From a virus (taxonomy: Duplodnaviria > Heunggongvirae > Uroviricota > Caudoviricetes): a DNA stretch of 19,835 nt. Of the stretch, positions 10,882-16,200 are shown in pieces. The stretch lies in the IMG/VR virus record IMGVR_UViG_2713897055_000003; one strand, 5' to 3'. How positions within the stretch are numbered: position 1 is the stretch's first letter; every line of letters begins with the position of its first letter. The position numbers were made by a program, and so were the translations under genes. The notes beneath the pieces were generated by a model that was not told the DNA's origin, made no database searches, and saw only the letters and a program-made list of their open reading frames with translations.

Positions 10882-11207
10882 AGACCTTCCGCTGGAAAGT
10901 GAAACCCGGTATGGATGTGGCTTCGGTCCCTTCTGTAAGAAAGGTGCGCTTTGGTGATGGTTATTCTCAGCGAGCGCCTGCCGGGCTGAATGCCAACCTG
11001 AAAACGTACAGCGTGACGCTTTCTGTCCCCCGTGAGGAGGCCACGGTACTGGAGTCGTTTCTGGAAGAGCACGGGGGCTGGAAATCCTTTCTGTGGACGC
11101 CGCCTTATGAGTGGCGGCAGATAAAGGTGACCTGCGCAAAATGGTCGTCGCGGGTCAGTATGCTGCGTGTTGAGTTCAGCGCAGAGTTTGAACAGGTGGT
11201 GAACTGA
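10878..11207 (+). CDS. M: Tail tip protein gpM
   Basis: 109-aa ORF; start overlaps the H stop (ATGA), stop overlaps the L start by 1 nt; canonical lambda order. Confidence 0.9.
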   Translation: MKTFRWKVKPGMDVASVPSVRKVRFGDGYSQRAPAGLNANLKTYSVTLSVPREEATVLESFLEEHGGWKSFLWTPPYEWRQIKVTCAKWSSRVSMLRVEFSAEFEQVVN

Positions 11208-11905
11208 TGCAGGATATCCGGCAGGAAACACTGAATGAATGCACCCGTGCGGAGCAGTCGGCCAGCGTGGTGCTCTGGGAAATCGACCTGACAGAGGTCG
11301 GTGGAGAACGTTATTTTTTCTGTAATGAGCAGAACGAAAAAGGTGAGCCGGTCACCTGGCAGGGGCGACAGTATCAGCCGTATCCCATTCAGGGGAGCGG
11401 TTTTGAACTGAATGGCAAAGGCACCAGTACGCGCCCCACGCTGACGGTTTCTAACCTGTACGGTATGGTCACCGGGATGGCGGAAGATATGCAGAGTCTG
11501 GTCGGCGGAACGGTGGTCCGGCGTAAGGTTTACGCCCGTTTTCTGGATGCGGTGAACTTCGTCAACGGAAACAGTTACGCCGATCCGGAGCAGGAGGTGA
11601 TCAGCCGCTGGCGCATTGAGCAGTGCAGCGAACTGAGCGCGGTGAGTGCCTCCTTTGTACTGTCCACGCCGACGGAAACGGATGGCGCTGTTTTTCCGGG
11701 ACGTATCATGCTGGCCAACACCTGCACCTGGACCTATCGCGGTGACGAGTGCGGTTATAGCGGTCCGGCTGTCGCGGATGAATATGACCAGCCAACGTCC
11801 GATATCACGAAGGATAAATGCAGCAAATGCCTGAGCGGTTGTAAGTTCCGCAATAACGTCGGCAACTTTGGCGGCTTCCTTTCCATTAACAAACTTTCGC
11901 AGTAA
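11207..11905 (+). CDS. L: Tail tip protein gpL
   Basis: 232-aa ORF in canonical position; product contains a C-terminal Cys cluster (CTWTYRGDECGY...CSKCLSGC). Confidence 0.9.
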   Translation: MQDIRQETLNECTRAEQSASVVLWEIDLTEVGGERYFFCNEQNEKGEPVTWQGRQYQPYPIQGSGFELNGKGTSTRPTLTVSNLYGMVTGMAEDMQSLVGGTVVRRKVYARFLDAVNFVNGNSYADPEQEVISRWRIEQCSELSAVSASFVLSTPTETDGAVFPGRIMLANTCTWTYRGDECGYSGPAVADEYDQPTSDITKDKCSKCLSGCKFRNNVGNFGGFLSINKLSQ

Positions 11906-11910
11906 ATCCC

Positions 11911-12654
11911 ATGACACAGACAGAATCAGCGATTCTGGCGCACGCCCGGCGATGTGCGCCAGCGGAGTCGTGCGGCTTCGTGGTAAGCACGCCGGAGGGG
12001 GAAAGATATTTCCCCTGCGTGAATATCTCCGGTGAGCCGGAGGCGTATTTCCGTATGTCGCCGGAAGACTGGCTGCAGGCAGAAATGCAGGGTGAGATTG
12101 TGGCGCTGGTCCACAGCCACCCCGGTGGTCTGCCCTGGCTGAGTGAGGCCGACCGGCGGCTGCAGGTGCAGAGTGATTTGCCGTGGTGGCTGGTCTGCCG
12201 GGGGACGATTCATAAGTTCCGCTGTGTGCCGCATCTCACCGGGCGGCGCTTTGAGCACGGTGTGACGGACTGTTACACACTGTTCCGGGATGCTTATCAT
12301 CTGGCGGGGATTGAGATGCCGGACTTTCATCGTGAGGATGACTGGTGGCGTAACGGCCAGAATCTCTATCTGGATAATCTGGAGGCGACGGGGCTGTATC
12401 AGGTGCCGTTGTCAGCGGCACAGCCGGGCGATGTGCTGCTGTGCTGTTTTGGTTCATCGGTGCCGAATCACGCCGCAATTTACTGCGGCGACGGCGAGCT
12501 GCTGCACCATATTCCTGAACAACTGAGTAAACGAGAGAGGTATACCGACAAATGGCAGCGACGCACACACTCCCTCTGGCGTCACCGGGCATGGCGCGCA
12601 TCTGCCTTTACGGGGATTTACAACGATTTGGCCGCCGCATCGACCTTCGTGTGA
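11911..12654 (+). CDS. K: Tail tip assembly protein gpK; JAB/MPN (JAMM) metalloprotease domain plus NlpC/P60 cysteine peptidase domain
   Basis: 247-aa ORF; exact JAMM motif H-x-H-x7-S-x2-D at HSHPGGLPWLSEAD (nt 12112-12153); the C-terminal half carries a conserved Cys (GVTDCYTLF) and His residues consistent with NlpC/P60. The last 199 aa, from the Met at 12055, match the lambda gpK sequence as I recall it; the 48-codon N-terminal extension is in frame. Confidence 0.85.
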   Translation: MTQTESAILAHARRCAPAESCGFVVSTPEGERYFPCVNISGEPEAYFRMSPEDWLQAEMQGEIVALVHSHPGGLPWLSEADRRLQVQSDLPWWLVCRGTIHKFRCVPHLTGRRFEHGVTDCYTLFRDAYHLAGIEMPDFHREDDWWRNGQNLYLDNLEATGLYQVPLSAAQPGDVLLCCFGSSVPNHAAIYCGDGELLHHIPEQLSKRERYTDKWQRRTHSLWRHRAWRASAFTGIYNDLAAASTFV

Positions 12655-13223
12655 AAACTGGTGCTGAAGCCATTCGGGCGCTGGCCACACAGCTCCCGGC
12701 GTTTCGTCAGAAACTGAGCGACGGCTGGTATCAGGTACGGATTGCCGGGCGGGACGTCAGCACGTCAGGGTTAACGGCGCAGTTACATGAGACTCTGCCT
12801 GACGGCGCTGTGATTCATATTGTTCCCAGAGTCGCCGGAGCCAAGTCAGGGGGCGTATTCCAGATTGTCCTGGGAGCTGCCGCCATTGCCGGATCATTCT
12901 TTACCGCCGGAGCCACCCTTGCAGCATGGGGGGCAGCCATTGGGGCCGGTGGTATGACCGGCATCCTGTTTTCTCTCGGTGCCAGTATGGTACTTGGTGG
13001 TGTGGCGCAGATGCTGGCACCGAAAGCCAGAACTCCCCGTACACAGACAACGGATAACGGTAAGCAGAACACCTATTTCTCCTCACTGGATAACATGGTT
13101 GCCCAGGGCAATGTTCTGCCTGTTCTGTACGGTGAAATGCGCGTGGGGTCGCGGGTGGCTTCTCAGGAGATCAGCACGGCAGACGAGGGGGACGGTGGTC
13201 AGGTTGTGGTGATTGGTCGCTGA
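12552..13223 (+). CDS. I: Tail tip assembly protein gpI; N-terminal ubiquitin-like (beta-grasp) domain ending in Gly-Gly, hydrophobic Gly/Ala-rich C-terminal region
   Basis: 223-aa ORF MAATHTLPLASPGMARICLYGDLQRFGRRIDLRVKTGAEAIRALATQLPAFRQKL...VPRVAGAKSGG (GG codons at 12849-12854), recognised as lambda gpI; overlaps the K 3' end by 103 nt in another frame. Confidence 0.9.
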   Translation: MAATHTLPLASPGMARICLYGDLQRFGRRIDLRVKTGAEAIRALATQLPAFRQKLSDGWYQVRIAGRDVSTSGLTAQLHETLPDGAVIHIVPRVAGAKSGGVFQIVLGAAAIAGSFFTAGATLAAWGAAIGAGGMTGILFSLGASMVLGGVAQMLAPKARTPRTQTTDNGKQNTYFSSLDNMVAQGNVLPVLYGEMRVGSRVASQEISTADEGDGGQVVVIGR

Positions 13224-13283: not shown

Positions 13284-16200
13284 ATGGGTAAAGGCAGCAG
13301 TAAGGGGCATACCCCGCGCGAAGCGAAGGACAACCTGAAGTCCACGCAGCTGCTGAGTGTGATCGATGCCATCAGCGAAGGGCCGGTTGAAGGTCCGGTG
13401 GATGGATTAAAAAGCGTGCTGCTGAACAGTACGCCGGTGCTGGACAGTGAGGGGAATACCAATATATCCGGCGTCACGGTGGTGTTCCGGGCCGGTGAGC
13501 AGGAGCAGACACCGCCGGAGGGATTTGAATCCTCCGGCTCCGAGACGGTGCTCGGTACAGAAGTGAAATATGACACGCCGATCACCCGGACCATCACGTC
13601 GGCAAACATTGACCGTCTGCGTTTTACTTTCGGCGTGCAGGCACTGGTGGAAACCACCTCAAAGGGGGACAGGAATCCATCGGAAGTCCGCCTGCTGGTT
13701 CAGATACAACGTAACGGTGGCTGGGTGACGGAAAAAGACATCACCATTAAGGGTAAAACCACTTCACAGTATCTGGCCTCGGTGGTGGTGGATAACCTGC
13801 CGCCGCGCCCGTTCAGTATCCGGATGCGCAGGATGACGCCGGACAGCACCACAGACCAGCTGCAGAACAAAACGCTCTGGTCGTCATACACCGAAATTAT
13901 CGATGTGAAACAGTGCTACCCGAACACGGCACTGTTCGGCGTGCAGGTGGACTCGGAGCAGTTCGGCAGCCAGCAGGTGAGCCGTAATTATCATCTGCGC
14001 GGGCGTATTCTGCAGGTGCCGTCAAATTATAACCCGCAGACGCGGCAATACAGCGGTATCTGGGACGGAACGTTTAAACCGGCATACAGCAACAACATGG
14101 CCTGGTGTATGTGGGATATGCTGACCCATCCGCGCTACGGCATGGGGAAACGTCTTGGTGCAGCGGATGTAGATAAATGGGCGCTGTATGTCATCGGCCA
14201 GTACTGCGACCAGTCGGTGCCGGACGGCTTTGGCGGCACGGAGCCGCGCATCACCTGTAATGCGTACCTGACCACACAGCGCAAGGCGTGGGATGTGCTC
14301 AGTGATTTCTGCTCGGCGATGCGCTGTATGCCGGTATGGAACGGGCAGACGCTGACGTTCGTGCAGGACCGACCATCAGATAAGGTGTGGACCTATAACC
14401 GCAGTAATGTGGTGATGCCGGATGATGGCGCGCCGTTCCGCTACAGCTTCAGCGCCCTGAAGGACCGCCATAATGCCGTTGAGGTGAACTGGATTGACCC
14501 GAACAACGGCTGGGAGACGGCGACAGAGCTTGTTGAAGATACGCAGGCCATTGCCCGTTACGGTCGTAACGTCACGAAGATGGATGCCTTTGGCTGTACC
14601 AGCCGGGGGCAGGCGCACCGCGCCGGGCTGTGGCTGATTAAAACGGAACTGCTGGAAACGCAGACCGTGGACTTCAGCGTGGGTGCGGAAGGGCTTCGCC
14701 ATGTACCGGGGGATGTCATTGAAATCTGCGATGATGACTATGCGGGTATCAGCATCGGCGGGCGCGTGCTGGCGGTGAACAGCCAGACCCGGATGCTGAC
14801 GCTCGACCGTGAAATCACGCTGCCATCCTCCGGTACCACGCTGATAAGCCTGGTTGACGGAAGTGGCAATCCGGTCAGCGTGGAGGTCCAGTCCGTCACC
14901 GACGGCGTGAAGGTAAAAGTGAGCCGTGTTCCTGACGGCGTTGCCGGATACAGCGTGTGGGGGCTGAAGCTGCCGACGCTGCGCCAGCGCCTGTTCCGCT
15001 GCGTGAGTATCCGTGAGAACGATGACGGCACGTATGCCATCACCGCCGTGCAGCATGTACCGGAAAAAGAGGCCATCGTGGATAACGGGGCGCACTTTGA
15101 CGGCGACCAGAGCGGCACGGTGAATGGTGTCACGCCGCCAGCAGTGCAGCATCTGACCGCCGAAGTCACTGCAGACAGCGGGGAATATCAGGTGCTGGCG
15201 CGATGGGACACGCCGAAGGTGGTGAAGGGCGTGAGCTTCCTGCTTCGCCTGACCGTGGCAGCGGATGACGGCAGTGAGCGGCTGGTCAGCACGGCCCGGA
15301 CGGCGGAAACCACTTACCGCTTCACACAACTGGCTCTGGGGAACTACAGGCTGACAGTCCGGGCAGTAAATGCGTGGGGGCAGCAGGGCGATCCGGCGTC
15401 GGTATCGTTCCGGATTGCCGCACCGGCAGCGCCGTCGCGGATTGAGCTGACGCCGGGCTATTTTCAGATAACCGCCACGCCGCATCTTGCGGTTTATGAT
15501 CCGACGGTACAGTTTGAGTTCTGGTTCTCGGAAAAGCGGATTGCGGATATCAAGCAGGTTGAAACCACAGCACGCTATCTTGGCACGGCGCTGTACTGGA
15601 TAGCCGCCAGTATCAATATCAGGCCGGGCCATAATTATTATTTTTACGTTCGCAGTGTGAACACCGTTGGCAAATCGGCATTCGTGGAGGCTGTTGGTCA
15701 GCCGAGTGATGACGCATCCGGCTATCTGGATTTTTTCAAAGGCGAGATAGGGAAAACCCATCTGGCTCAGGAGCTGTGGACGCAGATTGATAACGGTCAG
15801 CTTGCGCCTGACCTGGCTGAAATCAGGACATCCATTACGGATGTCAGCAATGAAATCACACAGACCGTCAATAAGAAACTGGAAGACCAGAGTGCAGCGA
15901 TCCAGCAGATACAGAAGGTTCAGGTTGATACAAATAATAATCTGAACAGCATGTGGGCTGTGAAGCTGCAGCAGATGCAGGACGGACGCCTTTATATCGC
16001 GGGTATCGGTGCCGGTATTGAGAACACCCCCGACGGCATGCAGAGTCAGGTGCTGCTGGCGGCAGACAGGATTGCGATGATTAATCCTGCAAATGGCAAC
16101 ACAAAACCGATGTTTGTTGGTCAGGGTGATCAGATATTCATGAATGAAGTGTTCCTGAAATATCTGACGGCTCCCACCATTACCAGCGGCGGTAATCCTC

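Follow-up and report, generated by a model that had tools for sequence, protein, structure and literature searches.

Gene K and its neighbourhood

The analysed stretch of DNA (the window, 19,835 nt) contains a lambda-type late operon, in which the genes ...H, M, L, K, I, J occur in this order, and a side tail fibre gene. Over nearly 20 kb, it shares 96-97% identity with ECOR-derived lambdoid phages. Gene K lies within the M-L-K-I-J tail-tip block, with Pfam Phage_tail_L matched upstream and Lambda_tail_I downstream; all features described here are on the plus strand. Gene L (11207..11905) encodes the 232-aa minor tail protein L (Phage_tail_L, E 1.6e-101) and ends with the TAA codon at 11903-11905. 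After a spacer of 5 nt (ATCCC, 11906..11910), which contains no Shine-Dalgarno (SD) sequence, the K reading frame opens with ATG 11911 and runs to position 12654. It encodes 247 aa (phrog_30, E 4e-164), and the ORF, its Pfam matches, and its homologues define it as the full-length gene K with a JAMM/Prok-JAB and an NlpC/P60 domain. The start codon of the classical 199-aa gpK (ATG 12055..12057, MSPEDWLQ...) is the internal Met49 of this frame, and the 48 additional codons occupy 11911..12054. The initial annotation had described exactly this extended ORF, including the added peptide.

Gene I (12552..13223), which shares sequence with the 3' end of K in a different frame, encodes tail assembly protein I. 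This protein has a ubiquitin-like N-domain and is the substrate predicted for K (Iyer et al. 2006, PMC1779556). The annotation problem of gene I is the opposite of that of K. In the classical 223-aa gpI, the match to the Pfam profile Lambda_tail_I, which represents the ubiquitin-like domain, starts at residue 14. Because the 190-aa form starting at GTG 12651 (RefSeq/PGAP, PV340536) loses profile positions 1-25, I must, judged from this match, truly start within K and have at least 64 nt in common with its 3' end in the other frame. ATG 12552 is preceded by a good SD sequence (-9.3 kcal/mol), and the alternative starts at 12591 and 12651 are without one. Further downstream, J comprises 1159 aa in the window compared to the 1132 aa given for lambda J in a 2020 review (PMC7291167).

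One base is missing from the lambda reference sequence

The gpK of phage lambda (J02459/NC_001416; AAA96551, NP_040598; 199 aa) is the product of the same gene and corresponds to residues 49-247 of the window protein. The L-K junction and the first 548 nt of the 247-aa K ORF are identical between J02459 and the window except for one G. An alignment of window positions 11880-12080 places this single difference at G 12045 (GGAGGC(G)TATTT), equivalent to an insertion after lambda nt 14266. The distance from the L stop codon to ATG 12055 is consequently 149 nt in the window versus 148 nt in J02459, in agreement with an L-K spacer one nucleotide longer than in the lambda reference, as had been stated initially. 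In J02459, the same upstream ATG (nt 14133) opens a 76-codon ORF, of which the first 45 residues are those of the extension before the frame is shifted. Thus, without this one G, the upstream ATG is out of frame and K was annotated as a protein of 199 aa. The extra base had been proposed as the reason why the extension was missed in lambda. This holds true insofar as J02459 is out of frame, but the base is not specific to the window, since real lambda DNA carries it as well.

The alignment also shows G 12045 in the lambda record PV340536 and in OM418625 (lambda imm21), and 22 of the 26 phage records with at least 99% identity carry it. The four records without it are J02459, NC_001416 (the same sequence as J02459), OR474059, and OR974322. 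The feature coordinates of OR974322 are exactly those of the reference, which suggests a reference-guided assembly. A scan covering a single genome for each bacterial species uncovered further lambda DNA in unrelated assemblies. At least 15 independent contigs match J02459 base for base along stretches of up to 1600 bp, the additional G after nt 14266 being the sole difference, and the K protein of the window shows 100% aa identity over residues 1-247 to the K of such G-carrying contigs. We conclude that the G belongs to real lambda DNA and that the reference is the exception. The stray sequences (loci L005-L016, L023, L025, L030, and L031), several of which are ∼48.4-48.5 kb long and all of which carry the G after nt 14266, occur as low-coverage contigs in assemblies of Neobacillus, Pseudomonas, Shewanella, Chromatium, Bradyrhizobium, Leeuwenhoekiella, and others, and are presumably due to spike-in or reagent contamination. 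Resequenced commercial lambda DNA is reportedly listed with '14266insG', a point that was given no evidential weight here. We also weighed whether a programmed frameshift could account for the out-of-frame ORF of the reference and rejected this, since real lambda DNA simply has an extra G. In general terms, Feiss et al. (2022; PMC9119081) described nine differences between their hybrid sequences and the 1982 sequence, which many laboratory lambdas share.

Between nt 13622 and ∼14679 of G-corrected lambda, the window shows no base difference; from window position ∼12459 (lambda ∼14680) onward, 16 substitutions accumulate by nt 15221. This change suggests that a mosaic or recombination boundary lies within K.

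The extension represents the N-terminal half of a JAMM domain

We compared the long and the short form of K with domain profiles. The 247-aa form matches Pfam Prok-JAB (PF14464) with 52.3 bits (cut-off 25) over profile positions 3-112 of 114, whereas the 199-aa form reaches only 23.3 bits, below the cut-off, and covers positions 63-112. The 48-residue peptide alone matches positions 3-41. A match to the NCBIfam desampylase (JAMM) model, covering residues 3-103, is obtained with the long form only, and the 48 residues match four PHROG phage families with E values between 1e-22 and 1e-32. The suggestion that the long form is the complete JAMM domain is thereby borne out, and at the sequence level the JAMM half of K is complete in the 247-aa form only.

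The JAMM motif has been defined as E-x(n)-H-S/T-H-x7-S-x2-D with an upstream acid-base Glu (Ambroggio et al. 2004; PMC300881). In long K it reads E-x48-H-S-H-x7-S-x2-D, with the Glu located inside the extension. This residue, Glu19 (GAG, 11965..11967), is part of the sequence P-A-E-S-C-G and aligns with the E-x-C-G Glu of the solved JAMM proteins 2KKS and PfJAMM1 (5LD9/5LDA). The zinc-site part of the motif, H68-S69-H70-x7-S78-x2-D81, is encoded by 12112..12153; H68, S69, H70, and D81 do not vary in an alignment of 24 sequences, in which at least 90% also conserve S78. A profile of the K family matches 2KKS at 2.8e-12 and PfJAMM1 5LDA/5LD9 at ∼2e-10 (1.6e-10), in both cases with the Glu aligned, and a single-sequence query gave a match as well. 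The extension contains six Glu residues (E5, E19, E29, E31, E42, and E44). The initial annotation had pointed to acidic residues at E18, E28, and E30 as candidates for the conserved JAMM Glu. A catalytic-type Glu is indeed present in the extension, but the numbering was off by one (E19, E29, E31), and E19 is the only one of these residues that is invariant.

An AF2 model of K, which is of moderate quality overall (mean pLDDT 74, pTM 0.51), is well defined at the N-terminus: residues 1-30 have a pLDDT of ∼90 and form a helix (3-15) and two strands (19-27 and 30-35) that are packed together. Foldseek searches with this model retrieved PfJAMM1 (TM 0.62 over 120 columns), Rpn11, CSN5, AMSH, and 2KKS, so that the model, at its moderate confidence, has an MPN fold. 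Both the sequence comparisons and the predicted structure show the first 48 residues as the first helix and β-hairpin of a putative JAMM/MPN+ zinc metalloprotease domain, including its predicted acid-base residue Glu19.

The second domain of K, NlpC/P60 (C40; PF00877), comprises residues 111-224 (12241..12582) and is matched with 49.2 bits (cut-off 23) over profile positions 1-105 of 105. D120-C121, H187, and H199-H200 are invariant in the 24 sequences. The candidate catalytic residues are C121 (12271-12273), H187 (12469-12471), and H199 (12505-12507), and the K family profile matches MepS/Spr and CwlO.

The extension is conserved and under purifying selection

An exhaustive search of 1.84 billion representative sequences yielded 2779 protein matches to K. 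Close homologues (67-96% identity) are mostly 242-249 aa long and possess both domains, while full-length relatives with 35-50% identity have 230-260 aa, with query residues 4-10 aligning to their residues 3-15. Conservation was analysed in 15 close sequences and in 24 distant ones, down to 33% identity. Within the extension, the close homologues share I8, L9, H11, A12, P17, E19, S20, C21, and G22 as well as Y33, P35, N38, S40, P43, and F47, and the motif surrounding the invariant Glu19 is P-x-E-S-C-G. E19, C21, and G22 are invariant in both the close and the distant set, and the same is true for H68, S69, H70, D81, C121, H187, and H199. In the 24 sequences, N38 and F47 and, in the C-terminal part, R112, D120, H200, and S206 are likewise invariant. 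The N-terminal segment of K homologues, for which an alignment had been proposed as a check, is therefore conserved at the protein level and colinear down to 33% identity.

The coding signal points in the same direction. In pairwise Nei-Gojobori comparisons with 17 relatives, dN/dS of codons 2-48 was 0.06-0.5, similar to the rest of K; Escherichia albertii, for example, differs from the window extension by 12 synonymous and three non-synonymous substitutions. These comparisons indicate that the extension is under purifying selection. The mere openness of the frame was rejected as evidence for coding, because 55 stop-free random codons of the local composition are expected with P = 0.12. It is the combination of Pfam match, conservation, dN/dS, and predicted fold that shows, at the level of sequence and model, that the extension is real coding sequence.

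The L-K junction is present in 4330 of the 5426 complete E. coli genomes. In one K copy (L046; E. coli ECMA0423, CP178302.1, 1501-1797), which resides in a degraded prophage, a frameshift in the extension ends the ORF at 98 aa, so that this copy seems to be a pseudogene.

Translation start of K

In 15 of the 16 relatives with a located L stop codon, the K ATG follows 4-11 nt past this stop; the exception is an Edwardsiella locus with a distance of 88 nt. ATG 11911 has no SD sequence (anti-SD duplex +0.7 kcal/mol), and the same applies to the lambda-like copies. Since an SD sequence is missing, K translation is probably coupled to L termination (termination-reinitiation). In Providencia, Xenorhabdus, and Edwardsiella, AAGGA or GGAG precedes the K ATG (-5 to -8.5 kcal/mol), and Ile or Ser-Ile is found where Met49 stands in lambda-like copies. 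Met49 itself is non-conserved: it is kept in most E. coli lambda-like copies, but is replaced by Ile or Leu in many close relatives and missing in all distant ones.

The internal ATG 12055 is preceded, at a distance of 11 nt, by an SD-like GGAGG (12039..12043, -9.5 kcal/mol), which is encoded by conserved Pro-Glu-Ala codons and is labelled as ribosome binding site in OM418625. This GGAGG accounts for the original choice of the short start and for its continued use by some gene callers. The strong SD sequence at 12055 and its absence at 11911 speak against the long form as the only product, and some internal initiation is possible. A promoter and terminator scan of positions 11600-12300 returned one weak match each, approximately what is expected from shuffled sequence. 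A weak terminator-like hairpin with a T-poor tail, of a kind that occurs at about chance frequency, is located at 11857-11873, inside the 3' end of L.

K in annotation records, in the literature, and in related systems

K is listed with 199 aa in J02459 and NC_001416, and also in HK630, DE3, and lambda imm21, curated records with lambda specialists among their authors; in these three, the 199-aa K was kept although the G is present in the sequence. KT232076 gives 211 aa, while RefSeq and PV340536, a lambda record from 2025, give 247 aa from the same ATG as in the window. In thousands of E. coli prophages, RefSeq names the 247-aa form 'C40 family peptidase'. The short form has also entered the literature: a 2020 structural review analysed '199 residues' and recognized only the peptidase at 52-182 (PMC7291167), the founding paper on JAMM cites the truncated AAA96551 (PMC300881), and a 2025 phage-protein expression library cites the truncated NP_040598. 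An explicit correction, stating that lambda K comprises 247 aa or that the reference lacks a G at 14266, was not found in the searchable literature, where only the general statement on nine differences (PMC9119081) was encountered. A MutaMouse lambda-gt10 paper and the lambda interactome paper contain nothing on K. The PHROG families phrog_7305 (76 aa), phrog_2635 (135 aa), and phrog_2552 (142 aa) are N- or C-terminal pieces of K, and many database K entries are L-K or K-I fusions or truncations of 199-220 aa. K is thus often split, fused, or mis-started in automated annotation.

Nevertheless, the finding is already known in substance, since the 247-aa K is a routine RefSeq call and the JAB + NlpC/P60 architecture was published in 2006. 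E. coli prophage proteins annotated as 'C40 family peptidase' or 'phage tail protein' (e.g., WP_000194779.1, 247 aa) have the same start, length, and L-K-I-J neighbourhood. Compared to proteins of the WP_000194779.1 type and the 247-aa K of lambda PV340536 (96-100% identity), the K of the window is another copy without any substantive difference. Neither does it differ from the TAPK family of Iyer, Burroughs and Aravind (2006; PMC1779556), which combines the same JAB and NlpC/P60 domains with a ubiquitin-like TAPI/gpI downstream; that study is silent on the truncated lambda annotation and on the start codon. In contrast, the K of J02459 differs from the window protein by the lack of residues 1-48, and hence of Glu19 and half of the JAMM fold.

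K shares the motif E...H-S-H-x7-S-x2-D and its predicted fold with the archaeal and bacterial proteins PfJAMM1 (5LD9/5LDA), the desampylase HvJAMM1, and DSY2949 (2KKS), and with eukaryotic Rpn11/CSN5. The stand-alone JAMM proteases and Rpn11/CSN5 cleave ubiquitin-like modifiers after a C-terminal Gly-Gly. Unlike the stand-alone enzymes, the JAMM domain of K is fused to NlpC/P60 and has a role in virion assembly, and its activity is a prediction from sequence. A literature search for a biochemical report on Zn-dependent (iso)peptidase activity of gpK returned none.

Alternative explanations

The classical view, according to which K consists of 199 aa translated from ATG 12055 only and the upstream frame is untranslated or a separate small gene, agrees with the annotation of J02459/NC_001416 and the records copied from it. 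It is also favoured by the SD sequence at 12055, and an open frame of this length can arise by chance (P = 0.12). But it leaves unexplained why the upstream frame should encode the missing half of a Pfam domain with an invariant catalytic-type Glu, be subject to purifying selection in just this frame, and be colinear with the N-termini of ∼2800 homologues, or why distant relatives have no Met at position 49 and an SD sequence at the upstream start. A K of 199 aa only is contradicted by these comparative data, and we regard this view as extremely improbable. If both starts were used, ATG 11911 would give rise to a 247-aa protein with active JAMM and NlpC/P60 domains, and the internal ATG 12055 to a nested, JAMM-dead product of 199 aa with NlpC/P60 only. 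Nested pairs of this kind are known from other lambda genes (C/Nu3, S107/S105). The distribution of SD sequences (GGAGG at 12055, none at 11911) and the retention of Met49 in most E. coli lambda-like copies would fit, and Iyer et al. noted phage TAPK versions with an NlpC/P60 domain only (PMC1779556). However, the frequent exchange of Met49 for Ile or Leu in close relatives and its loss in all distant ones argue against this second start; the GGAGG can be explained as a by-product of conserved Pro-Glu-Ala codons, its 11-nt spacing exceeds the optimum, and the short product would hold half a domain that is unable to fold alone. We therefore consider nested products unlikely, and it is equally doubtful that in lambda-like E. 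coli phages a Met49 isoform serves a function of its own, such as that of a chaperone or of a regulator in the processing of gpI.

With respect to the missing G, if the phage stock used for the 1982 sequence had really carried a mutation, this lambda would have been viable with a truncated K. Four database records without the G are compatible with such a mutation, and in principle a good SD sequence could allow the synthesis of a 199-aa product whose NlpC/P60 domain is intact. Two of these four records are one and the same sequence, though, and OR974322, with its reference coordinates, appears to be reference-guided. Moreover, the G is found in every independently sequenced laboratory lambda and hybrid and in all of the at least 15 stray contigs, which are otherwise base-identical to J02459 in this region. 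A stock mutation is thus quite unlikely, and a sequencing error is most likely the cause of the missing G.

Predicted role of K and implications

Taken together, we consider it highly probable that gene K encodes a single protein of 247 residues from ATG 11911 with a complete JAMM domain, and that the 199-aa form is an annotation artefact. Translation would start 5 nt after the L stop codon by termination-reinitiation coupling. Glu19 together with H68-S-H70-x7-S78-x2-D81 forms the complete JAMM active-site motif, which is followed by the NlpC/P60 domain with C121, H187, and H199. In the 1982 reference, which lacks one G, the next in-frame ATG with its strong GGAGG was taken as the start, and this choice was carried over into later records.

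gpK is needed for tail assembly yet is not part of the virion (PMC10721106, PMC12617516), and it was not found in virions by mass spectrometry (PMC10721106). Following Iyer, Burroughs and Aravind (2006; PMC1779556), K may act as a non-virion assembly enzyme, whose deubiquitinase-like JAMM domain would process the ubiquitin-like N-domain of gpI during tail-tip assembly. Both the catalytic activity of the JAMM domain and gpI as its substrate are predictions, derived from sequence and from analogy. The ubiquitin-like domain of gpI ends with ...AGAKSGG, and the codons for Gly100-Gly101 (223-aa numbering) are located at window positions 12849-12854. In a cryo-EM structure of the lambda tail, gpI is resolved only from residue 101 (PMC11101478), and in another structure from residue 135. 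The beginning of the resolved part at Gly100-Gly101 is compatible with cleavage by the K JAMM domain and equally with disorder.

The value of these results is corrective: they fix the reference genome of the best-studied phage and do not add a new system or new biology. Since the truncated K lacks half of the putative metalloprotease domain and the predicted catalytic Glu, earlier studies of cloned 'K', whether of its function, its interactions, or its structure, may have been done with a defective protein. The 247-aa form makes the 2006 prediction directly testable, namely that the JAMM domain of K would clip the ubiquitin-like domain off gpI.
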